Source: a virus. From it: a stretch of 39,490 nt of DNA. The stretch lies in the UHGV virus genome UHGV-0154499. One strand, 5' to 3'. Both the position numbers and the translations under genes were made by a program. The notes below the pieces were generated by a model that worked only from the letters and a program-made list of their open reading frames with translations, was not told where the DNA came from and ran no database searches. Below are positions 1 through 39,490 of the stretch, piece by piece; position 1 is the stretch's first letter, and each line of letters opens with the position of its first letter.

Positions 1-2887
1 GAACGAACTGGTTGGCGTTAAACCCGACGCGGGTGACTACCGGCTTACCCGCTTCGGCCAGCACGGCAATCGACATCCCGGCACCGTAAAAAATATCGTT
101 GATGCGCACTCCGACTTTCAGGGTATGAATGGCCGTAGCACTTGTAGCATCAACGGTGGCAGTGAGCTTATCCTCAAGCGAGGCGGTTACATCTTTAATC
201 TGCGCCTGCACCTGTGTGGACATTTCAGCCATCGCTTTATCAACATCAGCAATGGTCGTTTTAACCACCAGAATATCCGCACGTACCTCGCCGTACTGCG
301 CCCACTGGTGTTCCACGGTTGCATGGTTGGCCAGCGCGTTCTGCAATGCGGCTTCGAGGTTGGTATCAATGTCGCTTGTCAGGCGATCGCCGTCGGCAGA
401 CGTCAGGAAGTCATCAGCAATATCGCCCAGGTAGTCGTCAGCATTCGCATTAGATTCACCACGAACCCAGTCGGTCCAGCCTGATTCATTACCCGTTCTG
501 TCTACCAGCTGCGCGCGGTACCAGAATTCCTGCCCCGCCTTTAGTCCAAGTTGGGTGTATTCGGCTGACGGATAAGGCACATCCGACAGCAAAAGAGGAT
601 TAGAGAAATCACTGTTCGCGGTGTACTGAATTTCCGTTTTCAGTGTGTCCCCGGTGTTAGCCGGGAATCCCCAGTTCAGGCGAATCCCCCAGTTGATCGG
701 CGTTGTCGCAAAGCCGACAGGTTTTGGCGGATTTCCCACCTTACCCGTCAGCGTTTTTTCTTCGGAATAGCCCCAGCCAGAGGAAATTTCAGCGGCATTA
801 ATGGCACGCACACGCACGAGGTAGCGCCCTGCATAAATACCCGATACATCAAATGAGTTGGTGGAGCTGCGCGGCACGTTAACCCAGTTCCCGTCGTTGC
901 GGCGCCATTGCGCTTCATAGGAGATAGCGTTCTGCGCCTGGTCCCAGCTCACCCGCATGGTTTCGACGCTGATATTCTGCTGAACCACTGAAAACGAACT
1001 GATCACGATGTTGGCTGGCGGCGACTGGTTACCCGGCGGGATCACACTCACCGGCCGCTGGTCAATGATGGCTCCGGTATCAATACGGGCATATTTATCC
1101 GGGTCGTGCCATGCGCCGGTAATAGAGAAAGTGCCATCGCCATTATCGGAGACGCTGACAACACGATACTGCTGCGCGTAAAGCTCGTCCGACTCAACCA
1201 CCCAAACAGCTTCGGCCTGTGGCGTCTCACTGTATGCCGTAGTGACTGTGACTGATTGCCCGTTAACAGCCTGAATGGTCCTGCTCCGTGACGCGCCGGA
1301 GGGAAGATTGAGAATCAGACGATCACCAGCTACTGCATCCGCAACACGATCAAGCTTTATCACGCGACCGTTAACGGCGCTGATACGCCCGCCCAGAACT
1401 TTTCCGGACAGCAGTTCGTCTGACACGGCAATGATGTAGCCAGGCTGCGGAATGTTTCCGTCCAGGCCAACATCAAACGAAACAACGCGATCCTTATTGT
1501 TGGTGAGAATACCCCAGCGCCCCTTTCGGTTCGCTTCTGATTGCCGGTTGCAGCCGATGGCTGTCATTTCCAGCTGATTAAATCCGTAACGGGCCACCAG
1601 AGACTGCTCAAACACTGGCTCCATCGCATCCGCATAGGCGTTACCCGGATCAGACCAGGAAACCAGCGCCGTGGTATACCGCGTTTTTGTTGTACTGCTG
1701 GAATAGGTAAAGCGTCCGTCGATAACGTTAGCGCGGGTGTAAGCGTAATCCACATCTCTCGGCATATCGGCAAGCGCAACAATCTGATCACCGCCCCAGT
1801 ACGTCATACCCCGGAATATAGCCGCAAAGTCACGCAGCACGGTGTAAGCGTCATTCCTCTCCTGAACATAGACGTTACAGGTATAGCGTGGTTCGGTCCC
1901 GTTTCCACCCTTTCCATCCGGTACCGGCTGATCGCAATACTGCGATACCTGGTACAACGTCCATTTATCGATATTGGCGGCAGTCAGACGATTACCCAGA
2001 CCAAAGCGATCTGTAATCACAAGATCATAAAATATCCACGCCGGGTTATCGGTCCAGGCCCATTTAAACGCCCCTTGCCATGTACCGCTGTAAGTCCTCG
2101 TTTCAGGATCATAATTATCCGGCACACGGATCACGCGCATTTTTGGCTCGCAGGAAATCTGCGGGATAGAGCCATTGAACTGGCTTGAGTCGAACTCAAT
2201 GTAAAGCAGAGCGGTATTCGGATAACGTAATTTGGCGTCAATCACTTCCGTGAAGCTCTGCAGCGTCATTTTGTCACCGATCTTCGCGCTGTTTGCGTCA
2301 GCGGTAATCTTGCGTAACCGGATTGTCCAAGTGCTGCCAGCCTGTGGTAAATCAATACGGTGGCTGCGTTCGTAGCCTGAGGTGGTTTTCCCGGTTACGC
2401 TGGTATTCAGAACGGTTTGCCACGTACCACCATCGGTCTGCAGGTCTATCGCATAATTGACGGAATACCCAACCAGATCGCCGTTATCTTCCTGCTTAAA
2501 TAACGATGACCATTTCAGGCGCAGACGAACAGCTGAAAGCTGGGAATTGGTAAAGGTACGTGTCCATGCTGTTGCACTTGAAACCTCAGAGCCAACATTG
2601 ATCTCATTTTCAGTACCAGGGATACCCTGAATGTAATTCTGCGCCTGCGTCCCTGAACGGAACTCCCACACTACGCCACTGAAATTCTGCGAGCCATCCG
2701 CATTCTCAAGCGCGGTACCATCCAGATAAATATCCTTGCCAGTCAACTGTCCTGCGAACTCACCTTCTCCCAGCGCTACGAGTATTTTTGCCTTCGCTAC
2801 CGACTGCAGATCATCTGGCTGTTCGGTTGGGGTTCGGGAACTGGAACTGCCGCCCTTGCGGCCTTTAATCGTGGTTGCTAAAGCCAT
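1..2887 (-). CDS. J: Central tail fibre / host specificity protein J, partial (about 962 N-terminal codons; C-terminus lies beyond the window start)
   Basis: Manual translation of the minus strand from ATG near 2887 gives an uninterrupted frame to position 1 (MALATTIKGRKGGSSSSRTPTEQPDDLQS...), with fibronectin-like central and J-family motifs (YCDQPVPDG, TEPRYTCN). Missing from the ORF track because it has no stop in the window. Confidence 0.88.
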   Translation of the reverse strand, partial: MALATTIKGRKGGSSSSRTPTEQPDDLQSVAKAKILVALGEGEFAGQLTGKDIYLDGTALENADGSQNFSGVVWEFRSGTQAQNYIQGIPGTENEINVGSEVSSATAWTRTFTNSQLSAVRLRLKWSSLFKQEDNGDLVGYSVNYAIDLQTDGGTWQTVLNTSVTGKTTSGYERSHRIDLPQAGSTWTIRLRKITADANSAKIGDKMTLQSFTEVIDAKLRYPNTALLYIEFDSSQFNGSIPQISCEPKMRVIRVPDNYDPETRTYSGTWQGAFKWAWTDNPAWIFYDLVITDRFGLGNRLTAANIDKWTLYQVSQYCDQPVPDGKGGNGTEPRYTCNVYVQERNDAYTVLRDFAAIFRGMTYWGGDQIVALADMPRDVDYAYTRANVIDGRFTYSSSTTKTRYTTALVSWSDPGNAYADAMEPVFEQSLVARYGFNQLEMTAIGCNRQSEANRKGRWGILTNNKDRVVSFDVGLDGNIPQPGYIIAVSDELLSGKVLGGRISAVNGRVIKLDRVADAVAGDRLILNLPSGASRSRTIQAVNGQSVTVTTAYSETPQAEAVWVVESDELYAQQYRVVSVSDNGDGTFSITGAWHDPDKYARIDTGAIIDQRPVSVIPPGNQSPPANIVISSFSVVQQNISVETMRVSWDQAQNAISYEAQWRRNDGNWVNVPRSSTNSFDVSGIYAGRYLVRVRAINAAEISSGWGYSEEKTLTGKVGNPPKPVGFATTPINWGIRLNWGFPANTGDTLKTEIQYTANSDFSNPLLLSDVPYPSAEYTQLGLKAGQEFWYRAQLVDRTGNESGWTDWVRGESNANADDYLGDIADDFLTSADGDRLTSDIDTNLEAALQNALANHATVEHQWAQYGEVRADILVVKTTIADVDKAMAEMSTQVQAQIKDVTASLEDKLTATVDATSATAIHTLKVGVRINDIFYGAGMSIAVLAEAGKPVVTRVGFNANQFV

Positions 2888-2940
2888 ATCGCGCCCATAA
2901 AAAAAGCCACCCTGAGGTAGCCTGAGAAAAGAATTTTTTC

Positions 2941-3510
2941 TTACTGCTGATCTTCGACGTATATCCCAGCAGAAATAATCGCCCCACCAATTCGACGCTT
3001 ACCATACCCTAGGGGGACGGGATATCCCTGCGCCGCTGTATTAGTTACCCCGCCGAAAGCATACGAAGCGCGGTTATCTGCACTTTGTTTACTGGCAAGA
3101 CCTGATGGTTGTGGTGAGAGCATTTGAATAACTCCACCAGCAGCCAAAGAAATGCCTGCTGTAGCCACGTAATACTGCTGTGTTACAACCCCAACAACGA
3201 CCAAAGCAGCCCCAAGAATAGTTTGTAATAACCCTGCTTTTTTACTCCCAATAATTACAGGAACTATCCGTATAACCTCTCCTGTAACAGGATAACCAAG
3301 GTCACCCTCACCAATGTTTTTTTTCCCTTTAAATATGGCGTAAGTAAGCCCACGTCGTTTACTGGAGATCATATATTTCCGAAAACCATCTATGGTAGCC
3401 GAAAGAGCAACACCAGCTTCCTGCACATTGCTAATCAGTCGATGATGGGTCTTACCATAAATTTTCCCCAGATCTCCACCGAGTTCGATACGAGTCATTA
3501 CTTCAGTCAT
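2941..3510 (-). CDS. I: Tail assembly protein I
   Basis: Ubiquitin-like N-terminus (RIELGGDL), hydrophobic glycine-rich C-terminal half (GGVIQMLSPQ) as in lambda gpI. Start moved to the internal ATG at 3510, which has an AGAGG RBS; the track start at 3528 is TTG. Confidence 0.8.
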   Translation of the reverse strand: MTEVMTRIELGGDLGKIYGKTHHRLISNVQEAGVALSATIDGFRKYMISSKRRGLTYAIFKGKKNIGEGDLGYPVTGEVIRIVPVIIGSKKAGLLQTILGAALVVVGVVTQQYYVATAGISLAAGGVIQMLSPQPSGLASKQSADNRASYAFGGVTNTAAQGYPVPLGYGKRRIGGAIISAGIYVEDQQ

Positions 3511-3569
3511 TTGAACCTCTAAAAGCAAAAAACCCCGCCGTAGCGAGGTTTTGAAGAATATTAATTTGG

Positions 3570-3980
3570 TCAGAACGCCGTTGGGTGAATGCCAAAGTCG
3601 CCATTTGTTCCATAACCAATTCGGTACATGAGCGTGGCACTTTCAGTTACCTTGCCTGACTGTTCACTCATACCACCACCACATACACCTTTGGGCCATG
3701 CGCTAAAGATATGGTCACCTAATTTAGGGTAAACCGTTACCTTTTCAGCTGTATCTAAGTCCGCAACTTCTTTCCCATCAACATAGACACGAGTCAAACA
3801 TGCGCTACCCATAAATCCAGAATCCCTCTTGATGATCACCTTCCCTGTCCCATCATTTTTAACCAACATCGTATTGTCGATAATTTGTTTGACGGGAACA
3901 TCTTTTGCCTGCTCATTTGTTACCGGCTTAGTGGCGCAACCAACCATCAAAACTGCAAGTAGAATTATTCCTCTCTTCAT
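3570..3980 (-). CDS. Putative lipoprotein of unknown function (accessory gene; possible superinfection-exclusion protein)
   Basis: Internal start MKRGIILLAVLMVGC gives a signal peptide with a lipobox (LMVGC); the 19 residues upstream in the track ORF lack an RBS. No recognisable domain. Confidence 0.6.
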   Translation of the reverse strand: MKRGIILLAVLMVGCATKPVTNEQAKDVPVKQIIDNTMLVKNDGTGKVIIKRDSGFMGSACLTRVYVDGKEVADLDTAEKVTVYPKLGDHIFSAWPKGVCGGGMSEQSGKVTESATLMYRIGYGTNGDFGIHPTAF

Positions 3981-4020
3981 ATTCCTATCCCTTTGAGTCA
4001 ATTTGCTAAAATGGTAACAG

Positions 4021-4057
4021 GGAAAAGACAGCGACAAAACCCGCAGTTAAGCGGGTT
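4021..4057 (-). terminator. Rho-independent terminator downstream of the KilAC antirepressor gene
   Basis: Minus-strand hairpin AACCCGC-TTAAC-TGCGGGTT followed by TTTGTCGCTGTCTTTT. Confidence 0.5.
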
Positions 4058-4093
4058 GTGAGTAATACGATGAATACTTGAACTGTAGCCTGA

Positions 4094-4837
4094 TCAGGCC
4101 ACACTAGCCCCTTGGAGCAAATGTCGTAATGCCTTGATGCCTTCAGAGTTATAGCGAAACGCCTCAACCTGTTTATCGGAATGTTTCGACTTGTCGAGGA
4201 AGAATTTACCGTATTGCTCTGTTTTCAGATTGTGCTTGTTAGCCAAGCGACCAACCTTATTGGCAGAACAGCCGATCTCAGCAGCAACTTCTCCAGCGGT
4301 AGCGTAGTGTTCATCAATCAACGGCAAAGGCATGACCTCGTGCCCAAGCAGTGGATTAACAAGCGTTGCAACGATCACCTGGTTTGCTGATTCACCAAGT
4401 CTTGGGAACATTGACATCAACTCACGAGCTGAGGCGATATTTTTCTCCAGCGCCAGCGCTTTCAACTGCTCCGCCTTTGCACGTCGATATTCAGGAAGAC
4501 CCGAGCTATTTTGCGCTGAAATCTGGATAGCCTGCATATCTTCCAACTTATCAACTAGAGAACGTCGAACTGCTTTCGATTCACGAGCTGCTACGCGGAG
4601 GGCTTGCTTGATAGACATTGTAATTACTTCAATGTCTTGACCATTTTTACGACCTACACTTTTTGTGTAGGTCTCACCATCAAGCTCATCGACAACTTTC
4701 TCAATGAACTTGTTATTTCGGACAACCGGCTCACCGCACTGCTTTCGCGCGGCATTCACCATCTCCAGCAGGTACTGACTGTCAATGGTTTTCTCGGTGA
4801 CAACGCTACCCTTTGATGCTAAATTTAATGAAGTCAT
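4094..4837 (-). CDS. Phage antirepressor-like protein, KilA-C/ANT C-terminal domain
   Basis: C-terminal ATAGEVAAEIGCSANKVGRLANKHNL matches the KilAC (ANT) DNA-binding pattern; AAGGA RBS 9 nt upstream of the ATG. Confidence 0.65.
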   Translation of the reverse strand: MTSLNLASKGSVVTEKTIDSQYLLEMVNAARKQCGEPVVRNNKFIEKVVDELDGETYTKSVGRKNGQDIEVITMSIKQALRVAARESKAVRRSLVDKLEDMQAIQISAQNSSGLPEYRRAKAEQLKALALEKNIASARELMSMFPRLGESANQVIVATLVNPLLGHEVMPLPLIDEHYATAGEVAAEIGCSANKVGRLANKHNLKTEQYGKFFLDKSKHSDKQVEAFRYNSEGIKALRHLLQGASVA

Positions 4838-4864
4838 TAAGTGGTCCTTATGACGGTTTCATGG

Positions 4865-4899
4865 ATAGCCGATAGCTCGAACTATCGGCTATTCTTTTT
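4865..4899 (+). terminator. Perfect 11-bp inverted repeat with a plus-strand T-run (terminator-like, or a regulator binding site)
   Basis: ATAGCCGATAG-ctcgaa-CTATCGGCTAT followed by TCTTTTT, between the BRO-N and antirepressor genes. Confidence 0.4.
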
Positions 4900-4913
4900 G
4901 CATTTAAGCAAAT

Positions 4914-5495
4914 TCAATAAATCCTCGGTCGTTCTCCCTGTTGTAGTTGTTGATCAGCATATTCCTTAATCATATATATGAATGCCGCCCCATCATTAAA
5001 ACGATCATGAAGGCGACCAGCCAAAGGTGACTCTATTGCCCTCAAAGCTGGTTCTATCTGGTTAAACCATGCTTCACACATAACCTCGAAATAATCGAAC
5101 ATTGCGTTTGCATTGTGGGCGTGGATTTCACGATTGCTGAGCATCTTTGTTGCTGGAATGTTTATAGAAACCTCACGATCCAGAATGTCTAAAACCCAGC
5201 GTCGGAATTCTTTAGCAACTGGAGTTCTGGCAAACATAGCGACCATGTGTGCGCCACGTAGAGAAAAAACCCGAGTTTCCTGATTCCCACCAGGGGTGGT
5301 CAACCTGACCACCCTTGTCATTTTTTCTGTAAATTCATCACAATGCCTAGCATGTATGCGCTGTACAGCCTTATCGTCTGCATACTGAAGCGCAAAACCG
5401 ATCTGATTTGCGCTCAACCAAATTCCATCGATATCGGAGATGGTCTGAAAAGATACGCCTTGGAAGTTAAGCTCTGTTTTGGTTACACTATTCAT
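4914..5495 (-). CDS. BRO-N domain protein (phage antirepressor/regulator family)
   Basis: BRO-N-like N-terminus (ELNFQGVSFQTISDIDGIWLSANQIGFALQY...RVFSLRGAHMVAMFARTPVAKEFRRWVLDIL). Start set at the internal ATG (MNSVTK) with an AAGGAAA RBS; the track start at 5591 is GTG and overlaps the upstream small gene. Confidence 0.7.
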   Translation of the reverse strand: MNSVTKTELNFQGVSFQTISDIDGIWLSANQIGFALQYADDKAVQRIHARHCDEFTEKMTRVVRLTTPGGNQETRVFSLRGAHMVAMFARTPVAKEFRRWVLDILDREVSINIPATKMLSNREIHAHNANAMFDYFEVMCEAWFNQIEPALRAIESPLAGRLHDRFNDGAAFIYMIKEYADQQLQQGERPRIY

Positions 5496-5568
5496 GTCGA
5501 TATTTCCTTCGCGGGATTTGTTCGATAAGAAGCCCCGGCTATCGCAATTAGTTGGGGCTTCACTGTTT

Positions 5569-5736
5569 TTAAGCCTGAGCACTTTTTTCACCTGTCAAAC
5601 CATATGCCTTTCTCAGTTGGTAAATCAGTTCGGTATTGAACTGACGACATTCTTCCCCGCCATTCCTTTCAATCGCCTCGCGAACATCCTCCGGAATGCG
5701 AATTTTGCGCTGGTACATATCTTTCGCTTTTTGCAT
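5569..5736 (-). CDS. Small Arc-like ribbon-helix-helix protein (55 aa), not in the ORF track
   Basis: Manual translation MQKAKDMYQRKIRIPEDVREAIERNGGEECRQFNTELIYQLRKAYGLTGEKSAQA; strand-helix-helix pattern like Arc/Mnt; AAGGAG RBS 6 nt upstream; first gene of the minus-strand operon ahead of BRO-N. Confidence 0.55.
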   Translation of the reverse strand: MQKAKDMYQRKIRIPEDVREAIERNGGEECRQFNTELIYQLRKAYGLTGEKSAQA

Positions 5737-5854
5737 TTCATCTCCTTAAGCCCCACCGTGGGGCACTAAAAGTGTCACACCGTGCGTCATTGAAGTCAAC
5801 CCCACCGTGGGGCATAATTTACAAATTGTGAATTTTTAGAGGTCAAGCCAGCAA
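5737..5854. promoter_or_regulatory. Divergent promoter/operator region with two copies of the 13-bp palindrome CCCCAC-C-GTGGGG
   Basis: Palindromes at about 5751-5765 and 5800-5814. Plus-strand promoter TTGAAG-17 bp-CATAAT overlaps copy 2; minus-strand promoter TTGACT-17 bp-GACACT lies just upstream of copy 1. Confidence 0.55.
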
Positions 5855-6289
5855 ATGAGCAGAGAAGATCCACAGCTTAGAATCAGACTTCCTATTGAAT
5901 TGAAAGAAAAAATTGAGGAAGCAGCTAAGTCTAATAATCGCTCCATGAATGCAGAAATTGTTCAGCGTCTTGATGCCAGTTTCTTAAGCGAAATGCCGGT
6001 AGATGAATTAGTTTCAGCTGAAGAAGCCCTACTTATCGTAAGTCGCGCAAAGGATGAACTGTCAGGGATAATTTTCAAACGGACATTTTCCGTCATTAAC
6101 GAGAAGATCCGTATTGGGCACACTACATTCCATATCAGCCTTAGCGACTTAGACCTTGAAGGCTTGAGCGATGATGATTTTGAAGCTGTGTTTAAGTCTA
6201 CATTCTCCCGCCTAAAAAGCCTGGGTTACAACATTTGGGAGTCAAGCTGGGATGTGAACGGATTCATGGTTGAGATTCCTAAGAAATAG
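5855..6289 (+). CDS. Arc/Mnt-like ribbon-helix-helix repressor with a C-terminal extension (144 aa)
   Basis: N-terminus RIRLPIELKEKIEEAAKSNNRSMNAEIVQRLDASF is a canonical Arc/MetJ-family RHH motif; transcribed divergently from the small RHH/BRO operon. Confidence 0.7.
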   Translation: MSREDPQLRIRLPIELKEKIEEAAKSNNRSMNAEIVQRLDASFLSEMPVDELVSAEEALLIVSRAKDELSGIIFKRTFSVINEKIRIGHTTFHISLSDLDLEGLSDDDFEAVFKSTFSRLKSLGYNIWESSWDVNGFMVEIPKK

Positions 6290-6296
6290 ATTCACA

Positions 6297-6321
6297 GTAA
6301 AAGCCCACCTTATGTGGGCTT
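6297..6321. terminator. Bidirectional terminator between convergent gene K and the Arc-like gene
   Basis: AAAAGCCCAC-cttat-GTGGGCTT with U-runs on both strands; overlaps the K stop codon. Confidence 0.5.
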
Positions 6322-7030
6322 ATAAAAGATCCTTATACCGTAGAACCTTTGTCGTTCTTTCCTGCCAGTATCCCCCATACGGTACACGCTGACTCAAATG
6401 ACCATAAAGATGGTGGAGTAACATGTTACCTTCCAGCAGGATCCCTGCATGGTTCCACTTATTAGCCTGGACCTGCATGATAACCATATCACCTGGCTGC
6501 GGTACGCCACTGAATTCTCGGAATCCGCATTCATACCAGCAATCGTGGTAGAAATTTTCGGGGTAACTATCCTCCCACCAGGGATAATCCACGCGGTAAT
6601 CCGTCAGCTCAATGCTATGCGTTTGCCGGAAATAACTCATCACCAGCCCCCAGCAATCGAAATGGCCGAGCACGAACGGACGTTCCAGCAGCGGTAACTC
6701 GCCGCGCGGCTGAATGGTGCGTAAATCCCCTTCCGGCCAGCTGACGATATGCCAGGGAAGTAACGTAGCGTCACACTGTGCCTTATCCAGTTCGCTCGCC
6801 TGCGTCGTGGCATCCGGGTGGCTGTGGACAATGGCAATCACTGTTCCCCAGTCTTCGGCAGCGGCATAATCTTCCGGCGACAGGTGGAAATGCTCTGTTG
6901 GATCGGTTGCCAGATTACGGCAGGGAATGTACCGCTGCACCCTGCTTTTTTGCACCACTACGCCGCAGCTCTCCCGCGGATATTCAGCGGCAGCATGCGC
7001 CATAATGGCATTGATAATTCTCTGACGCAT
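6320..7030 (-). CDS. K: Tail assembly protein K (JAB/MPN plus NlpC/P60 domains)
   Basis: JAMM motif HSHPD and an NlpC/P60-like C-terminal half; sits between L and I as in lambda. Confidence 0.85.
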   Translation of the reverse strand: MRQRIINAIMAHAAAEYPRESCGVVVQKSRVQRYIPCRNLATDPTEHFHLSPEDYAAAEDWGTVIAIVHSHPDATTQASELDKAQCDATLLPWHIVSWPEGDLRTIQPRGELPLLERPFVLGHFDCWGLVMSYFRQTHSIELTDYRVDYPWWEDSYPENFYHDCWYECGFREFSGVPQPGDMVIMQVQANKWNHAGILLEGNMLLHHLYGHLSQRVPYGGYWQERTTKVLRYKDLL

Positions 7031-7031
7031 A

Positions 7032-7787
7032 TCAGCTCCTGATCAGGGATGTACCAGGGAAACCACCAAACGGTAACTCGTTCCCCACGCCATGTCGCAA
7101 CTTGCACGCAGTGAGCGTACCGGGGCATTCATCGAGCGAAGGATCGTTAACCGGGTTGTTGTGCTTGTCGAAATAACGCGTTCCGGCATAGTCACATCCA
7201 TCACCTGAGCGGTATTTGTTACGGATACACCAGGTACAAAGCGAATGTAGCTGGCGCGTCGGGATCATCAGTCCCTGCAGGTCCATTGGACTGGACAACG
7301 TAAACGCCACCACCTCGTTGGTTTCAGTGCTCTTGGCGTCAATGTAAAACACCTTCAGCTTTTCCTGCTGCGGATCCGCTGACGGGTTGCCCTCCGGATA
7401 GTTTTTCGCATCCAGATACTGCGCCAGCGTGTCATGAATCGTGACCTTTGCCTGCAGCAGGTCATCATAAGCAAGACACAGCGCCGTAATGGAACTATCC
7501 AGGTTAGCGACCGACAGCGTCGGCTGCGCGCTGGTCCCGTCGGTCGCCGTCTCAATACCCTCGATCTGGCAGGGCCAGGCTTTATATTCCTGCCCCTGCC
7601 ACCAGATTGATTTCGCCGGTAGCTTATTTTCATCTCCACCAGCAGCGGCAATTTCATCGGGAGTGTGGGCAATGTTGTGGGCGTGGAAGCGGAGAACGTC
7701 GGAAACACCAAATGCGGTGCCATCGACATCAAAAAGCCGGACAACATTGCCCGGCTCAAGTTTCTGGTAATCACTGTTTAAGCTCAT
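7032..7787 (-). CDS. L: Minor tail protein L
   Basis: Position and size as lambda gpL; C-terminal Cys cluster (CTWCIRNKYRSGDGCDYAG) typical of gpL. Confidence 0.85.
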   Translation of the reverse strand: MSLNSDYQKLEPGNVVRLFDVDGTAFGVSDVLRFHAHNIAHTPDEIAAAGGDENKLPAKSIWWQGQEYKAWPCQIEGIETATDGTSAQPTLSVANLDSSITALCLAYDDLLQAKVTIHDTLAQYLDAKNYPEGNPSADPQQEKLKVFYIDAKSTETNEVVAFTLSSPMDLQGLMIPTRQLHSLCTWCIRNKYRSGDGCDYAGTRYFDKHNNPVNDPSLDECPGTLTACKLRHGVGNELPFGGFPGTSLIRS

Positions 7788-8131
7788 GGTGCAAACGCCT
7801 GTTCAAAGGTGGCTGATACGGTTTCCACCGTTTTACTTTTGGTGACGCGCTGCAGGCTGTCTGCCTCAACGCGCCAAAGCGCAAGATCACCGCCTGGCGG
7901 GGTAAACGAAAATGATTTCGTCTTATGGCGCCGCAGAAAAGCATAGATATCCTTGACGGTTCCCGGTTCGCCGGTAAATGAAAACTCATAGCTGAGCGTT
8001 TCATCATTCATCCCGGCACCTGACACCTGCTTATAGCCATCACCAAACTGTGCCGTGCGGACGGTATCCTTACTTTTCAGGGTCGGCTGGCTGGATGCTT
8101 TAATCCGCCACGCAAAATGCTCGATCGCCAT
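7784..8131 (-). CDS. M: Minor tail protein M
   Basis: FGDGY motif and size of lambda gpM; 4-nt overlaps with neighbouring genes. Confidence 0.82.
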   Translation of the reverse strand: MAIEHFAWRIKASSQPTLKSKDTVRTAQFGDGYKQVSGAGMNDETLSYEFSFTGEPGTVKDIYAFLRRHKTKSFSFTPPGGDLALWRVEADSLQRVTKSKTVETVSATFEQAFAP

Positions 8132-8134
8132 TGC

Positions 8135-10651
8135 TTACCTCTGTTTTGTTGCATTCCAGATAATGCCTCCGGGCCGGACCTCTCTGGTGATACCTTCCCT
8201 GATGGAACTGTTGATCACCTGCTGATAGGCTTTCCCCAGCGCATCGCCGCTTCCTTTCTGTTGACCGGAATCCCCCTGGCCTGTTGTCACCGAAACCGGC
8301 GCATACACGCTGACGCCAAAAGGAGAAGCAACGCCACCGCCACTCACGCCGACCAGACCACCAGTCGCATAACCGCGCATCATGCGATAAAGGTTGCCGA
8401 CACCTATTCGGTTGGTGGCCTCCTGCGTAAAGACAAACTCGCCACGGTGCACCACACCTGCTGGCTCATACTTGCCGCCGGATCCGGTATAACCACCGCC
8501 AGCAAAACCCAGCGCTGACGTGGCAGAACTGACCAGGCCAGCCATGGCCTGCTTCATCAGGATCTGCGTCAGCATCGACAACGTTGAACGGGTGAAATCT
8601 GCCCAGTTTGCTTTCCCTGTCGTCAGCATATCGGCCATATTCTGGCTGATACCATCGAATGTGGCTGAAGCAGCGGACTTCATCGAACCATAGGCATCAG
8701 CTGCTGAATCGGCATAGTCAGCCCACGCTGATTTCGCCCCGGCCTGCCAGTTGCCGCGGAGCTCGTCCTGTGCGGCATAATATTTCTTCAGTGCATCCAG
8801 TTCGTTCTGATAACCCTGATCGGTGTCCGTACCGCCGGCATTCATCCAGCCCTGCCGCAGCTGTGCTTCTTCGTTTTGCCGCTGTGCGCCGCGACTGCTC
8901 ATGCTTCCCCCGGCCACAAGCGCCCGGGTTTTCTCCCCAATCTGGGTAACGTACTTCTGCGAGCTGTCCTGCAGGCGGTTTAACCGTTCCTGGGCAACAA
9001 TCTGATCGCCCAGCCGGGCATTCACTTCGGCCCGCGCCAGTACCTCGTCTTTGTTCGCCAGCACCGATTTTTCATCGGCGGTCAGCGCGCGCTTTTTGGC
9101 GGCTTCTTCCAGCACCGAAAAGCGGGATTGTTGTTTCCACAATTCCTGCCGCTGCTGGCTGATGGTATCCGTGATGCTCTTATGCTCCTGCAGGGTGCGT
9201 AACTGAGCCTCCAGCTCCAGCGTCTGCGCGCTGGCAGTATCGACACTTTTTACACCTGCAGGTGTTTTTACCGCTGAAGGGGCTTTGGGTTTCTTCAGCG
9301 AGTCGTCGTATTCTTTTTTCGCAGCTTCCAGATTGATGTTGTAATCAGCCTGGAGGATCCGTCCGTCTTTAAGCGCCTTGTTCAGTTCATTCTGACGGGC
9401 CGTGTACTTCTCCAGCGCAGTCTGCGTCTTTGCATAATTCGACTGCGCCTGCGCGGCATACTTCTGGCGGTCAGATTCAATCACCGCCTCGCGGGCGGCG
9501 TTATCCTCAGTGGCCTTTGCCACACTGGCCTGCTGCTGCGCCATTTCCAGTGCAAGGCGGGCAGACTCCCGATCGTTCCAGTAGCTGGCACGCGCATCAT
9601 CATTGACATAACCATCACCTTTACGCAGATTCCAGATTTCATCCGCCCGCTTAAAGGCCGCTTCCGCTTTGGCTACCATCTCCTGCGTGGTGTCAGGCCG
9701 CCCGATATCGAGCGCCGCATCCCACATCGATTTAAAGGCACGCTTCAGGCTGTCGGCAGCAGACTCAATCGACCCCATATTGTCGCGCAGGCTCTTTGTC
9801 TGCTCACGAAAACCGTTCGTCGCCGCATCATTAGCTGCCTGCAGTGCCTCGGCTTCATCCCCGGCACGCTGCAGCTGCGCCACATAAGCAATCTGTTCCG
9901 CTGTGACGTTGTGGAACTGCTGCGCCATGGCAATCAGACCAGAGGTCGGATCGTTCGTCAGTTTGCCGAATGCCGCCGCCACCTTATCGACCGGCACACC
10001 CGACGCATCGGTGAATTTCGCTACCGCCTGACTCATCTCATCGAACCGGGCACCGGCACGCACTCCGGCGTTGACAAGCTCTGTCAGCGCGCTGCTGGTC
10101 TGGTTAAACGTGAGTCCAGCCTGTTCGCCGGATTTCGCCAGCACCAGCATGCGGTTTGAGGTCAGTCCGGCAGTATTACCGGACAGAACCAGCGTTTTAT
10201 TAAAATCAGACAGCGTGGACGATCCCTGATACCAGGCGTAAACCACCGCGCCGGTGGCGGCTGCCAGCGCGCCAACCCCCACCATCACCGGCGATATGGT
10301 GCCCAGCAGCGCGCGGAAGGTCGGAATGATACCGCCGAAGGAGTCTTTCACCTGACCGCCCTGCTGCAGCAGGATAAGCCACGGACTCTGCCCGCCGGCC
10401 AGCTGTGTTGCAACATCCGTGAATTGCGCAGGCAGCATTCTCATCGCATTACTGTACTGCCCAATTGATAAACCCGCTTTCTTGGCGGCCAGCTCCTGAC
10501 GGGATAACGACTGCTGCACCTTCAGCGCAGAGTCGTTCGCCGCGTCACCCGTCTGCTTAAACTGCCGTTTTACGTACTCCATCTGCTCGTTGAACTTTGA
10601 CGAATTAACGTCAAGGTTAACGACCAGGTCACCCACTGCCGTCTGGGCCAT
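8135..10651 (-). CDS. H: Tail tape measure protein H
   Basis: 838-841 aa; coiled-coil-rich centre and glycine-rich C-terminus; N-terminus MAQTAVGDLVV aligns with lambda gpH MAEPVGDLVV, so the start is probably the ATG at 10651 rather than 10660. Confidence 0.9.
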   Translation of the reverse strand: MAQTAVGDLVVNLDVNSSKFNEQMEYVKRQFKQTGDAANDSALKVQQSLSRQELAAKKAGLSIGQYSNAMRMLPAQFTDVATQLAGGQSPWLILLQQGGQVKDSFGGIIPTFRALLGTISPVMVGVGALAAATGAVVYAWYQGSSTLSDFNKTLVLSGNTAGLTSNRMLVLAKSGEQAGLTFNQTSSALTELVNAGVRAGARFDEMSQAVAKFTDASGVPVDKVAAAFGKLTNDPTSGLIAMAQQFHNVTAEQIAYVAQLQRAGDEAEALQAANDAATNGFREQTKSLRDNMGSIESAADSLKRAFKSMWDAALDIGRPDTTQEMVAKAEAAFKRADEIWNLRKGDGYVNDDARASYWNDRESARLALEMAQQQASVAKATEDNAAREAVIESDRQKYAAQAQSNYAKTQTALEKYTARQNELNKALKDGRILQADYNINLEAAKKEYDDSLKKPKAPSAVKTPAGVKSVDTASAQTLELEAQLRTLQEHKSITDTISQQRQELWKQQSRFSVLEEAAKKRALTADEKSVLANKDEVLARAEVNARLGDQIVAQERLNRLQDSSQKYVTQIGEKTRALVAGGSMSSRGAQRQNEEAQLRQGWMNAGGTDTDQGYQNELDALKKYYAAQDELRGNWQAGAKSAWADYADSAADAYGSMKSAASATFDGISQNMADMLTTGKANWADFTRSTLSMLTQILMKQAMAGLVSSATSALGFAGGGYTGSGGKYEPAGVVHRGEFVFTQEATNRIGVGNLYRMMRGYATGGLVGVSGGGVASPFGVSVYAPVSVTTGQGDSGQQKGSGDALGKAYQQVINSSIREGITREVRPGGIIWNATKQR

Positions 10652-10994
10652 AGCGAACACCTCCTGAAATGCCCTCGGCCTTTGCCATCAGCACAGCGTC
10701 ACCGGGTTCATCGTCGGCAATATCCTCCGCAGAAGGTGAAAGCAGGCTGAAGCTGGCAGGGGTTGATGTGGTTTTGGGGTCAAGCGCGGTAATGACGATA
10801 TGCATCAGCGAGGAAAAATGCGCATCCAGTTGCACATCATTAAAAAAATTGTCCTGGTAGAACGTTCGCCAGTCGGCGTATTCCGTTGACGACATACCAG
10901 CAAGCATGGCGCGCCAGTCCGGGCGGCGAAATTCACGCGCCAGTTTCAGGACGAATGTCAGCTCACTGGCGAGGACTTTTCCAGACTGATCGGC
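10629..10994 (-). CDS. T: Tail assembly chaperone T frame, expressed as a G-T fusion by programmed -1 frameshift
   Basis: The -1 frame is open from about 10994 and overlaps the 3' end of G; translation (MLAGMSSTEYADW...PASFSLLSPSAEDIADDEPGD) matches lambda gpT; an A-rich slippery stretch CTGGAAAAG sits in the overlap. Confidence 0.75.
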   Translation of the reverse strand, partial: ADQSGKVLASELTFVLKLAREFRRPDWRAMLAGMSSTEYADWRTFYQDNFFNDVQLDAHFSSLMHIVITALDPKTTSTPASFSLLSPSAEDIADDEPGDAVLMAKAEGISGGVRYGPDGSG

Positions 10995-21278: not shown

Positions 21279-22151
21279 TTAAAAAGCAATATCAATTAGT
21301 TCTCCTTTGCTCAATATTTTTCTAAAAATTTCAGCTCCATAAAGTGTAATAACACCTTCCAGAGTACAAAGAGGTTCCTTAGCACGAGCCATACATAAAC
21401 CACTTTTAGCACCGCCATTTAGTTTAGTATGAAGTGTTTTTGTAAGAATAGCAGCGAGTTCTAAGTCACTTATCTCTGCTACCGTATTTTTATTCAATTG
21501 TGACCTTTCGATTAGTTGAATAAAAATATCGATTCGACCAGGAGTTAACCCAAGATCTTGTGATAGCTCGTGTATTAAACCCCGTAAATCAACTTCAGCC
21601 TTAGGAGTAAAACGCCAATGTTTTATACCAAACTCTTTACCGTTACATGGTGCACCGATAACAACAGCCCTAAGTAAACTTAAAAATCCTTTACAAAACA
21701 CCCAGTTACCATCCGAGTATTCAATACCAAAATCACCACCCACACTATTTTTACTGTAAATATAATGATAATCCTCTGGTATACCAGACTCATGAACATC
21801 ATTACATCTTAATAAATGGTAAATTATATCTTCTGGTGCTGTCTCAGCTACTATCAACTGTGGGATTTCATCCCAATAATATGCTTCCTCAGGAAGGTTA
21901 TACCCCATAATTTGTTGTAACCTTACACGGAGAAATCTTTTATATTTTTCCCCATCTGTCATTCGTTTTTTTTGGGCTTGTCCCTTTGTTTTTTTTGGTT
22001 TAGTTATGGGTTCTTGTTCAAAAGGGAAAACTTTGAGAGCTGATCCAGATATAGCTGTCACCAAAAGCAGAAGTGCAGCTTCGTAACGACTATGAGAAAT
22101 CAAAAAATCAACATCATCCAAGCGTTTTTTTATGTTACTTACCTTTTGCAT
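21279..22151 (-). CDS. Hypothetical 290-aa protein, AT-rich accessory gene (moron) between cos and the lysis cassette
   Basis: Complete ORF with ATG, flanked by AT-rich noncoding DNA on both sides; GC visibly far below the phage backbone; no recognisable motifs. Confidence 0.6.
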   Translation of the reverse strand: MQKVSNIKKRLDDVDFLISHSRYEAALLLLVTAISGSALKVFPFEQEPITKPKKTKGQAQKKRMTDGEKYKRFLRVRLQQIMGYNLPEEAYYWDEIPQLIVAETAPEDIIYHLLRCNDVHESGIPEDYHYIYSKNSVGGDFGIEYSDGNWVFCKGFLSLLRAVVIGAPCNGKEFGIKHWRFTPKAEVDLRGLIHELSQDLGLTPGRIDIFIQLIERSQLNKNTVAEISDLELAAILTKTLHTKLNGGAKSGLCMARAKEPLCTLEGVITLYGAEIFRKILSKGELIDIAF

Positions 22152-24379: not shown

Positions 24380-24420
24380 TTTTGATAAATTAAAGACTCA
24401 CAGCACATTAAAGTTCAAAT
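24380..24420 (-). promoter_or_regulatory. Candidate late promoter PR' (minus strand)
   Basis: TTGAAC-18 bp-TTTAAT on the minus strand, upstream of the tR'-like terminator; placement relative to Q is unusual. Confidence 0.3.
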
Positions 24421-24448
24421 GTTAACTATTAGATTCCAAAGGAATATT

Positions 24449-25390
24449 ATGACGACTGCAGTTGCGGTAAAAAAACCCAAAAAACTACGAATTGGATTCT
24501 ATACAAGTAGTTCTGGAACCATTCGGAGCCACTCTGTTGCCAAAGCTGCGATCGATAACCTTTACAGTACTTGCGTAAATGTAACTAATAATCATTTCGA
24601 TACTATATATAAAAATAAAAAATTGAAAATCGCATTTATTAATAAAGATGCCAATGCTAAATATTATTTTGGCTATATGTCTTGCTCAAGGGAAGAATAT
24701 CTACTGCCTTATATTGGAGATGAGAACTGGAAAGAACACAACATCCCATTAGATGATAAAAAATATATTGTCGAGCGCACTTATTTTTTGTATTACTACG
24801 AAAGTGACATTCTGATCCTTACGCAAAATCATCTTGGCCCCAAGGAATCGGATCTGGCTTACCTTTTATACAGCCAGAGTGGTCAACCAGGTAACAACTT
24901 TTCTTTCCAAGCTATTTGGAAGAAAGAAAGTATAAAAGAGCTTCTCGAAACAGGAAGTACACTTAGAAGCTGCGATCTCATTCTTGCTGCCCCAAGAAAT
25001 TTCGATGTGACTAATTATCAGTTAGATAGCTCATTTTCAAAAGATCTTCTGAATATGATGGTTGGCCTTGGCGGCACACATTTAAAACTCAATCTTAGGG
25101 GTAGAGCATCTGGCAGAGTTAAAGTTAAAGGCTATCTTTCGGATCTGATAAAAGATGGTATTAAAGAATTATTAGAAAAAATGCCAAATATTGTCAAAAA
25201 AGCAGCAGTAACACAGCCCAAAAATACTGTAGAGCAAAGCCTTCTTGAACAAGTTCTCATTTCGGAGAAAAACATTCATACCGTAAATGGTTATGGCACA
25301 GATAGCGATGTGCTCCAAGCGATGATTTCTGCTAAAATTGACAACAATGGTTACCTTATCCAGTACGACATAAGCAATAAGAAGGTATAG
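24449..25390 (+). CDS. Hypothetical soluble protein (313 aa), first gene of a two-gene accessory cassette; RexA-like by architecture
   Basis: AT-rich ORF; start at internal ATG with an AAAGGAA RBS; lysine-rich, no TM segments. Possible weak similarity to RexA from memory (GFY near the N-terminus, LGPKESDL...LL), unverified. Confidence 0.6.
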   Translation: MTTAVAVKKPKKLRIGFYTSSSGTIRSHSVAKAAIDNLYSTCVNVTNNHFDTIYKNKKLKIAFINKDANAKYYFGYMSCSREEYLLPYIGDENWKEHNIPLDDKKYIVERTYFLYYYESDILILTQNHLGPKESDLAYLLYSQSGQPGNNFSFQAIWKKESIKELLETGSTLRSCDLILAAPRNFDVTNYQLDSSFSKDLLNMMVGLGGTHLKLNLRGRASGRVKVKGYLSDLIKDGIKELLEKMPNIVKKAAVTQPKNTVEQSLLEQVLISEKNIHTVNGYGTDSDVLQAMISAKIDNNGYLIQYDISNKKV

Positions 25391-25393
25391 TTT

Positions 25394-25837
25394 ATGTTAT
25401 TGAGATATATAGCAAATATTTTAGGGAGCATTTTACTAACATATTTCTTACTGAAGTATGTCCCACTAATGCAACATAATGATATTCTTACGTCCGCAGG
25501 GGTTATCTCCACTGTGTCTGGGATTTTGTTTGGGTTTGTGCTTGCCACCATTTCAATTTTTAGCGCAGCTAGCGCTAATTCAAATGGGGTTTTAAAGGCC
25601 TTAAAAAACAATAACATACTCCAAGGAATTGTAACTAATTTATTAGCCGCTGGAGCGACATTAATTACAGCATGCTTGATTTCACTCGTTGCCATGTTTG
25701 TCAGTGACAATTTAGTCTACAATGACCAAAAAATAGAGTTTATATTCATAATTCAATCATTATCACTATTGATAGTAGCCGTCATAATGTTTGGGTTTAC
25801 TTGGCGTAAAATTAATTGGTTTTTACCACACATATAA
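25394..25837 (+). CDS. Small integral membrane protein with four predicted TM helices (147 aa); RexB-like by size and topology
   Basis: Four hydrophobic segments (about residues 5-24, 34-58, 75-103, 115-137); starts 4 nt after the upstream gene's stop; GAAGGT RBS. Confidence 0.6.
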   Translation: MLLRYIANILGSILLTYFLLKYVPLMQHNDILTSAGVISTVSGILFGFVLATISIFSAASANSNGVLKALKNNNILQGIVTNLLAAGATLITACLISLVAMFVSDNLVYNDQKIEFIFIIQSLSLLIVAVIMFGFTWRKINWFLPHI

Positions 25838-25859: not shown

Positions 25860-26222
25860 TCAATCCAAATCTAATCTAGCACTAATCATGCACAAACAGC
25901 CGTCAACAAAACCCTCTGCCATTTGCATCTCTATCCTTATTATTTTTTCGTCTTTTTTTTGAGCTTTAGCAATTTTACGCTTCGATACTCCATACAGATA
26001 ATGTGCGACAATAAGTGAATGCTCATATGGTTTCCTTTTCTTGAGGCGAGCTAAGCAACCTTCAATAATCAGAGCATCTTCATCAGTGCAAGAAAGGCGA
26101 GTCTTGCTCGTTTGGGGAAGTAGCCCTTTAAAGCCAGCTGCAATTGGTGAGTAATCCACGCCAGAACTATCGCTCGCGGCCCATCCCCCCCAACGTTCTA
26201 ATACCATCTGAATATCACGCAT
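25860..26222 (-). CDS. Q: Late-gene antitermination protein Q (phage 82/21-type family)
   Basis: 120 aa; MRDIQMVLERWGGWAA... N-terminus and Cys-rich region typical of 82-type Q antiterminators. Confidence 0.8.
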   Translation of the reverse strand: MRDIQMVLERWGGWAASDSSGVDYSPIAAGFKGLLPQTSKTRLSCTDEDALIIEGCLARLKKRKPYEHSLIVAHYLYGVSKRKIAKAQKKDEKIIRIEMQMAEGFVDGCLCMISARLDLD

Positions 26223-36507: not shown

Positions 36508-37224
36508 ATGACAACTAACAACTACCCGGCGCTCGGTCCTGTGTCACTCGATCGCCTGCATCAGATACGCGAAATACTCAGCAAAGCATCAGCACAAAGT
36601 GACGGCGGTAATCTCGGCTACGCAATGGCTGATGCTGTGAAGGTGATTGATGGGATGATTTCTCGCGAACTGGTACGCCGTGAACATGCAGCATGGTCAG
36701 ATGAAACATTCGGCGATGTCGGTCCAGTTGGTCCGCTGAAGCACCTTTCCAAAGAAGCTATCGAGGCTGCTGCGGAACCAGACGAGATGAGCGAATTGGC
36801 TGACATGCAATTCCTGTTATGGGATGCGCAACGTCGTGCCGGTATCAGTGATGAGCAGATTACCCAGGCGATGGTAGAAAAGCTGGCGGTTAACAAACAG
36901 CGCAAATGGCCTGAGCCGAAAGATGGTGAGCCGCGACTGCATATCAAAGAGCAGCCTGCGCCGGTTGTGCCAGATGGTTACTGCATCATGCCTGTAGCGC
37001 TGACTGCCAAAAATGGCGCGAAATGGGCCTTGTCTGGTGAGTTCAGTACCGCACGCGAAGTTACCTGTCCTGAGTGTGAAGGTGATGGTTGCAGTGATTG
37101 CGACGGAAGAGGCGATTGGTACGAGGACCAGGCTATCGACTGGACAACTATTAAAGAAATCTACCGCAGAGCAGTTGAAGTGTGCGCGCTGCCAACTGGA
37201 CAAACTCAGGATAAAATAGCATGA
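36508..37224 (+). CDS. DUF550-like phage protein with C-terminal Cys-rich zinc-ribbon-like motif
   Basis: 238 aa; CPECEGDGCSDCDGRGDWY near the C-terminus; 4-nt overlap with the downstream gene. Confidence 0.6.
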   Translation: MTTNNYPALGPVSLDRLHQIREILSKASAQSDGGNLGYAMADAVKVIDGMISRELVRREHAAWSDETFGDVGPVGPLKHLSKEAIEAAAEPDEMSELADMQFLLWDAQRRAGISDEQITQAMVEKLAVNKQRKWPEPKDGEPRLHIKEQPAPVVPDGYCIMPVALTAKNGAKWALSGEFSTAREVTCPECEGDGCSDCDGRGDWYEDQAIDWTTIKEIYRRAVEVCALPTGQTQDKIA

Positions 37225-37793
37225 ACAATTTAATGATCGATCTCGAATCCATGGGCAAAAAACCGAATGCCCCTATCGTCTCCATTGGTGCCGTGTTCTT
37301 CGATCCGCAAAGCGGTGAACTGGGTCAGGAGTTTTACACCGCCGTTAACCTTGAAAGCGCTATGGAGCAGGGAGCGGTGCCGGATGGTGACACTATTCTG
37401 TGGTGGTTAAGACAAAGCTCAGAAGCGCGATCAGCAATCTGTGTTGATGATGCGATGCCGATATCGTCTGCCCTATCTGAACTGAGCCATTTCATTAATC
37501 GGCATTCTGATAACCCAAAATATTTAAAAGTTTGGGGCAATGGAGCTACTTTCGACAACGTTATATTGCGCGGCGCATATGAGCGCGCCGGCCAGGTTTG
37601 TCCGTGGCAATTTTGGAACGATCACGACGTCAGAACCATCGTCACATTAGGCAGAGTTGTTGGTTTCGATCCTAAGCGAGACATGCCATTCGATGGGGTG
37701 GCACATAACGCACTGGCCGATGCGCGCCATCAGGCAAAATACGTGTCCGCGATCTGGCAGAAATTGATTCCGACCACCAGCAGCGAGCTTTAA
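37221..37793 (+). CDS. DEDD-type 3'-5' exonuclease-like protein
   Basis: MIDLESMG (Exo I-like acidic motif) near the N-terminus and FDGVAHNALADARHQA (Exo III-like H...D motif) near the C-terminus. Confidence 0.65.
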   Translation: MNNLMIDLESMGKKPNAPIVSIGAVFFDPQSGELGQEFYTAVNLESAMEQGAVPDGDTILWWLRQSSEARSAICVDDAMPISSALSELSHFINRHSDNPKYLKVWGNGATFDNVILRGAYERAGQVCPWQFWNDHDVRTIVTLGRVVGFDPKRDMPFDGVAHNALADARHQAKYVSAIWQKLIPTTSSEL

Positions 37794-39440: not shown

Positions 39441-39490
39441 CCCCTAACGCCCGTCATGTTAACTGCGTGGAGGGCAATACCACGCTGTAT

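Follow-up and report, generated by a model that had tools for sequence, protein, structure and literature searches.

Throughout, the window means the whole 39,490-nucleotide stretch of viral DNA analyzed here (UHGV-0154499). Its opening 2.9 kb raise the question of whether this region is empty or holds a gene that the sequence edge conceals. The list of open reading frames for positions 1-2900 contains no entry longer than 215 amino acids, while the earlier note had claimed that a real gene J lies here and is hidden from the track. That claim is upheld: positions 2-2887 of the minus strand almost certainly make up 81% of an intact gene J, counted from its 5′ end, in a lambda-like siphovirus prophage. 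J is here an ordinary and well-known kind of gene, with nothing novel about it.

In a six-frame check, the minus-strand frame with codons at 2-4, 5-7, and so on remained free of stops from position 2 to the stop at 2999-3001, a run of 999 open codons. A stop between about 2887 and position 1, where the earlier note had read an uninterrupted frame, was looked for specifically on re-translation and is absent, whereas each of the five remaining frames carries between 20 and 72 stops over positions 1-2887. The ATG at 2887-2885 is the earliest ATG, GTG, or TTG after the in-frame stop at 2999-3001, and the open stretch reaches a further 37 codons 5′ of it, across the 3′ end of gene I. On contig L003 (ENA ERZ28651767 scaffold_1), which is 100% identical to window positions 1-7100, an independent gene call places the start at the same base (L003 10624 corresponds to window 2887). 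No clear Shine-Dalgarno sequence precedes this ATG. The window contains 962 codons of J, and codon 963 begins with position 1. The gene and its start are thus as follows:

2-2887, minus strand: gene J (central tail fiber, tip attachment, or host specificity protein), codons 1-962 of a probable 1194, with the 3′ end cut by the window edge; identified from the open frame, Pfam, PHROG, BLASTP against lambda J, and identity to L003
2885-2887, minus strand: J start codon ATG; first start after the in-frame stop, in agreement with the L003 gene call

The program that lists reading frames leaves out any that run off a sequence end, and J is absent from its output for this reason. The entries that it does give for this region are short, as the earlier note had said; they are not only antisense, however, since several lie on the minus strand in other frames. 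Short frames within J were considered as genes in their own right (plus strand 125-484, 129-434, and 1541-2188; minus strand, out of frame, 1564-1791) and rejected, as none matched a PHROG family.

That the long open frame might be a chance, non-coding feature can be set aside entirely. Base composition alone would yield 999 open codons with a probability of about 1.5e-20; across 2000 shuffled sequences, the longest open run had a mean length of 139 codons and a maximum of 313. The family matches described below reach E = 0, and the pattern of substitution is that of coding sequence: in relatives 99.4% identical to the window, 40-42 J codons differ, with 37-38 of these differences synonymous and 3-4 non-synonymous, and third codon positions account for 34-35 of the base changes. 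This pattern bears the signature of purifying selection on the J product in exactly this frame.

The identity of the product is supported by several independent comparisons. Both PHROG 31 ("central tail fiber J") and PHROG 2589 match the 962-residue protein with E = 0. The comparison with lambda J (NC_001416) that the earlier note had proposed was run by BLASTP and yielded 34% identity over 745 amino acids (E 5e-121); phmmer with the full-length J of L003 likewise recovered the lambda gpJ structure 8iyk_J (E 3.7e-119). Three Pfam domains were identified, all of them above the curated gathering scores used as cut-offs. The regions recognized within J are the following:

698-2851, minus strand: J residues 13-730, aligned to lambda gpJ 4-724 by BLASTP (13-731 against 4-725 by phmmer to PDB 8iyk_J); tail-tip hub domains and the first C-terminal FNIII domain
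2234-2614, minus strand: FNIII-A_GpJ (PF24801), residues 92-218; E 1.2e-49, 168 bits against a cut-off of 27, full profile (1-126 of 126)
1373-1861, minus strand: Phage-tail_3 (PF13550), residues 343-505; E 1.8e-12, 47.9 bits against a cut-off of 23
791-1045, minus strand: fibronectin type III domain, residues 615-699; phmmer to FN3con chain 4u3h_A, and aligned to the FNIII region of lambda J
179-445, minus strand: probable alpha-helical shaft, residues ~815-903; from position, alignment, and a low-confidence model
2-178, minus strand: N-terminal part of Phage_Tail_Tip (PF09327), residues ~904-962, cut by the edge; profile positions 2-59 of 139, 34.8 bits against a cut-off of 22

Residues ~815-903 probably represent an alpha-helical shaft, on evidence that is weak. 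The stretch sits between the FNIII domains and the tip-fiber domain, as the shaft does in lambda gpJ, and it aligns to the equivalent region of 9l9p_S and 23gd_D. A single-sequence AlphaFold model of residues 701-962 predicted one long helix (817-915), with a mean pLDDT of only 45.

The closest solved structures to the full-length J of L003, as recovered by phmmer, are 25vf, 9l9p_S, 23gd_D, and lambda gpJ (8iyk); matches to the first three, of which 25vf is the tail fiber of F2 pyocin and the other two are J-like tail tip proteins, extend from residue 5 to ~916 with E values of 2e-296 to 2e-237. At the nucleotide level, window positions 1-3100 are 80-83% identical to the J genes of phages HK225, HK75, HK106, and mEp235 over 85-94% of this window stretch, and related lambdoid phages and prophages of E. 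coli show the same 80-83% DNA identity in J. The three Pfam domains, PHROG 31, lambda J, the solved structures, and the position of the gene after gene I all bear out the earlier assignment to the J family of host specificity proteins.

The genes upstream of J form a tail module in the order tape measure-M-L-K-I-J, with J as the final gene:

2941-3510, minus strand: tail assembly gene I, 189 amino acids, ATG at 3510, adjoining J on its 5′ side; PHROG 32 "tail assembly protein", E 4e-69
6320-7030, minus strand: K, tail module
7032-7787, minus strand: L, tail module
7784-8131, minus strand: M, tail module
8135-10660, minus strand: tape measure gene, tail module

Between K and I lies an inserted 2.8-kb accessory block; PADLOC identified no defense systems among the accessory genes. 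The window also encodes the tail tube, major capsid protein, protease, portal, and small and large terminase subunits, together with Q, a cI-type repressor, replication genes, and an integrase at the right edge. It is a nearly complete lambdoid prophage.

Tailocins, F pyocins included, lack head and packaging genes. With the F2 pyocin tail fiber 25vf as the top match among solved structures (E 2e-296), the J product could in principle be the fiber of an F-type tailocin, a pyocin-like particle, rather than of a phage. The presence of head and packaging genes in the window excludes a tailocin, and Q, repressor, replication, and integrase genes and att sites share the same cluster; this reading is accordingly exceedingly improbable, and the prophage assignment is retained.

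The earlier note had also placed the receptor-binding C-terminus of J outside the window and suggested extending the sequence leftward. Such an extension was made by proxy. Gene calls on 24 public contigs include the exact 189-residue product of gene I, and in L003, J is 1194 amino acids long, with residues 1-962 exactly equal to the protein encoded in the window. Past the edge, L003 J reads LMSGSGDTQYSPF...NFSGG, continuing in frame for 232 codons (residues 963-1194) to a stop 699 bases out; the part outside the window, stop included, comprises 699 bases counting position 1, or 698 beyond it. The Phage_Tail_Tip domain, cut at 59 of its 139 profile positions in the window, is complete in L003 at residues 904-1040, and is followed by 154 residues that have no Pfam match. 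The complete frame of roughly 1100-1200 amino acids, distal receptor-binding region included, is present in L003 (1194 amino acids) and beyond the reach of the window. We infer that the source of the window continues as L003 does, and on this proxy contig the C-terminus does lie outside.

The best match among deposited phages to the missing 232 residues is the C-terminus of HK97 J, which is 40.7% identical to them across their full length (E 7e-41). The tip-fiber region of L003 J shows a weak resemblance to the lambda J fiber (23%, E 7e-06), and its distal receptor-binding region has no significant similarity to the LamB-binding domain of lambda. Because distal identity to HK97 is only ~41%, the HK97 receptor cannot be transferred to this J, and the window itself, which lacks the receptor-binding end, cannot reveal host range.

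How J ends in the source genome bears on two alternatives. In six of eight contigs with an identical gene I, J takes a shorter form of the N15/HK022/HK225 type, 1061 amino acids long, followed by a cassette of two small membrane-protein genes (108 and 220 amino acids) and a 76-amino-acid Cor exclusion gene (PHROG 1119). The 1061- and 1194-residue forms are alike until ~residue 1010, past the window edge, so that the window alone cannot separate them. However, each locus with the shorter form differs from the window at 39-42 positions, with mismatches denser toward the 3′ end of J, while L003, with its 1194-residue J, and the public scaffold L008 match the window at 100% identity over 7100 and 6848 bases, respectively. 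L003, carrying the same J allele as the window, has no Cor cassette. These data make continuation as the shorter form unlikely.

A truncated remnant or pseudogene in the real genome, due either to the end of the source contig or to a disruption just outside it, is a second way in which J might fail to continue as in L003. The 3′ end of the gene is invisible from the window alone; L008 ends within the same gene, at codon 878, indicating that assemblies tend to break here; and some related prophages are defective, having a deletion from terminase to M. Against this, the gene is intact on the identical contig L003, the 962 codons are under strongly purifying selection and contain no defect, and the remaining structural genes in the window are intact. 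A remnant is thus very unlikely, and the 1194-residue, intact J remains the preferred reading.

The coexistence of these forms suggests a further, tentative reading. Prophages 99.4% identical to one another may bear alternative J receptor ends: an HK97-like single-chain end, which is the window type, or a shorter N15/HK022-type end accompanied by small proteins and Cor. No deposited phage has a distal J more than ~41% identical to the window type, which might therefore recognize a receptor not yet assigned to any J, in an enterobacterial host other than E. coli. We regard this as possible but doubtful.

The limits of the prophage were also located relative to the window. At its right end lies one copy of the att core:

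39459-39469, plus strand: integrase-proximal att core TTAACTGCGTG, 11 bp; 19 nt beyond the integrase stop, where the prophage meets host yecE, and 21 bases from the right edge

A second copy of TTAACTGCGTG occurs inside yecE on the proxy contig, 4685-4675 bases left of the window start. The two flanks share no exact repeat of at least 13 bases, and it took a reading of the split yecE gene to reveal the 11-bp core. Beyond J, L003 carries genes for an S74-type tail fiber, an acetyltransferase, two DinI proteins, and a hemerythrin, then a 34-codon ORF overlapping yecD, and aspS. Contig L090, identical to the right end of the window, continues into yecE without its start, yecN, cmoA, and cmoB. Joining the two junction halves yields an intact yecE, and the joined sequence gives a single unbroken alignment to E. 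coli yecD-yecE, with 79% identity. With the second att core ~4.7 kb left of the window, the prophage would be ~44.1 kb long and inserted in the 5′ end of yecE, and the window holds about 39.5 kb of it. The earlier placement of the integrase-distal prophage end outside the window thus agrees with what is seen on the proxy contig. The host flank has a GC content of 52.5-53.8%, and a scan of genome contigs returned relatives at no more than 92%, the best being Enterobacter sp. ECC-219, a Kluyvera MAG, and E. quasiroggenkampii. Such comparisons say only that the host is an enterobacterium other than E. coli.

The 53-nt spacer between I and J contains one further element:

2904-2923, minus strand: terminator-like hairpin, with an 8-bp stem and seven U, 17 nt 5′ of the J start

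The annotation of phage HK225 places a rho-independent terminator at the aligned site. A terminator scan of positions 1-7200 returned 7 candidates against 7.0 expected by chance; the case for this candidate terminator therefore derives from its position and the HK225 annotation, and not from statistics. A search of the whole window against Rfam at the gathering score returned no match, and Tandem Repeats Finder found nothing in positions 1-3600.

The working of the tail tip can be proposed by analogy. In lambda gpJ, hub domains are followed by two FNIII domains, an alpha-helical shaft, a beta-prism central straight fiber, and a C-terminal receptor-binding domain; on binding to LamB, the shaft and fiber rearrange, the FNIII domains separate, and the tip opens (PMC11101478, from which the J domain names used here are also taken). 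By homology, three copies of J would build a conical tail tip, their hub domains extending and closing the tail tube, while the FNIII domains, alpha-helical shaft, and beta-prism fiber would project outward and end in the C-terminal receptor-binding domain. Binding of an outer-membrane protein by this last domain would cause the fiber to rearrange, the tip to open, and the DNA to be ejected. The portion of J in the window would run from the hub and FNIII domains through the probable shaft to ~59 residues at the start of the tip fiber. We infer the J trimer, receptor binding, and tip opening from the lambda gpJ structures.

For the window itself, these results mean that the first 2.9 kb are coding rather than empty, that the short ORFs listed there are spurious, and that the annotation should carry a 3′-partial J gene. 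The finding matters only for bookkeeping.

Among known systems, the arrangement is most readily compared with that of the HK97-group lambdoid phages (HK225, HK75, HK106, mEp235, and N15), in which the central tail fiber gene J (gp21 in N15) likewise follows gene I. HK225 has a 1062-amino-acid J, followed by genes like p24 and p25 of HK022 and by Cor, whereas the window allele matches the 1194-amino-acid form; neither lambda nor HK225 has the 2.8-kb insertion that separates K from I in the window. The C-terminus of HK97 gpJ is the best match in a deposited phage to the 232 residues outside the window, yet reaches only ~41% identity. The F2 pyocin fiber 25vf is among the closest solved structures, yet the window locus is a complete prophage with head genes. 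Lambda gpJ (1132 amino acids; PDB 8iyk, 8xci) has the same domain order, though its sequence has diverged much from that of the window J, with 34% identity over window J residues 13-730.

Prophages that are 99.4% identical to one another differ in how J, the lambda-type tail-tip gene, ends, and two alternative forms are found in the public contigs L001, L004, and L007 on the one hand and L003 (ENA ERZ28651767 scaffold_1) on the other:

L003 13600-14208: end of the long form of J (1194 aa in all), an HK97-like C-terminus
L001, L004, and L007 (L004 13809-15138): end of the short form of J (1061 aa in all), followed by 108-aa, 220-aa, and Cor (76-aa) genes

Closer to its 3' end, J shows an increasing density of mismatches between these forms, a pattern expected in the vicinity of a recombination boundary. 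The short-form layout, with a 1061-aa J and the 108-aa, 220-aa, and Cor genes, is also that of phages HK225, HK022, and N15.

In three of the related contigs (L002, L006, and L007), the N-terminus of the terminase large subunit is fused to minor tail protein M, giving a 412-aa protein (e.g., L002 4885-6123). This fusion is a deletion of all genes lying between terminase and M, which on the map of the window comprise those for portal, protease, capsid, tail tube, and tape measure; these three prophages are therefore defective, with J still intact. The window's own prophage, approximately 44.1 kb in size, is integrated in the 5' end of host yecE, as marked by the att core TTAACTGCGTG at window 39459-39469 and L003 18186-18196; the window (right-hand) copy lies 21 bases short of the right edge, and the insertion is flanked by yecD-aspS on one side and yecN-cmoA-cmoB on the other.

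Further genes and signals in the window:

24419-25837, +: two-gene cassette, encoding a DUF6731 protein (323 aa) and a 147-aa protein with no family match
21279-22151, -: 290-aa ORF located between lysis genes and the small terminase, in an island of 36% GC
36508-37793 (within), +: dATP/dGTP pyrophosphohydrolase (PF04447) and Rv2179c-like 3'-5' exoribonuclease (PF16473), early-left region
2904-2923, -: terminator-like hairpin then U-run, just 5' of the J start
3529-3552, -: terminator-like hairpin then U-run, just 5' of the I start

The cassette, of very low GC (35-41%) and on the strand opposite to its neighbors, has the Q antiterminator (25860-26222) on one side and the holin genes on the other, the classic moron position. 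It could represent an accessory or defence module; PADLOC returned zero model matches for it, and the 290-aa ORF matched neither Pfam nor PADLOC models. The PF04447 and PF16473 genes sit just upstream of the integrase. Both hairpins fall within the late operon, where Q antitermination presumably lets transcription read through them, and HK225 has an annotated rho-independent terminator at the position aligned with the hairpin preceding J.

A 2.8-kb insert (3570-6289), with a GC content of 44-45% as compared with 50-57% in its surroundings and zero PADLOC model matches, contains:

5855-6289, +: Arc-like repressor gene
4914-5591: Bro-N/Ant anti-repressor
4094-4837: second anti-repressor (PHROG 1726)
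3570-4037: lipoprotein (PHROG 890)

This low-GC block separates tail genes K and I in the window, whereas the two are adjacent in both lambda and HK225.
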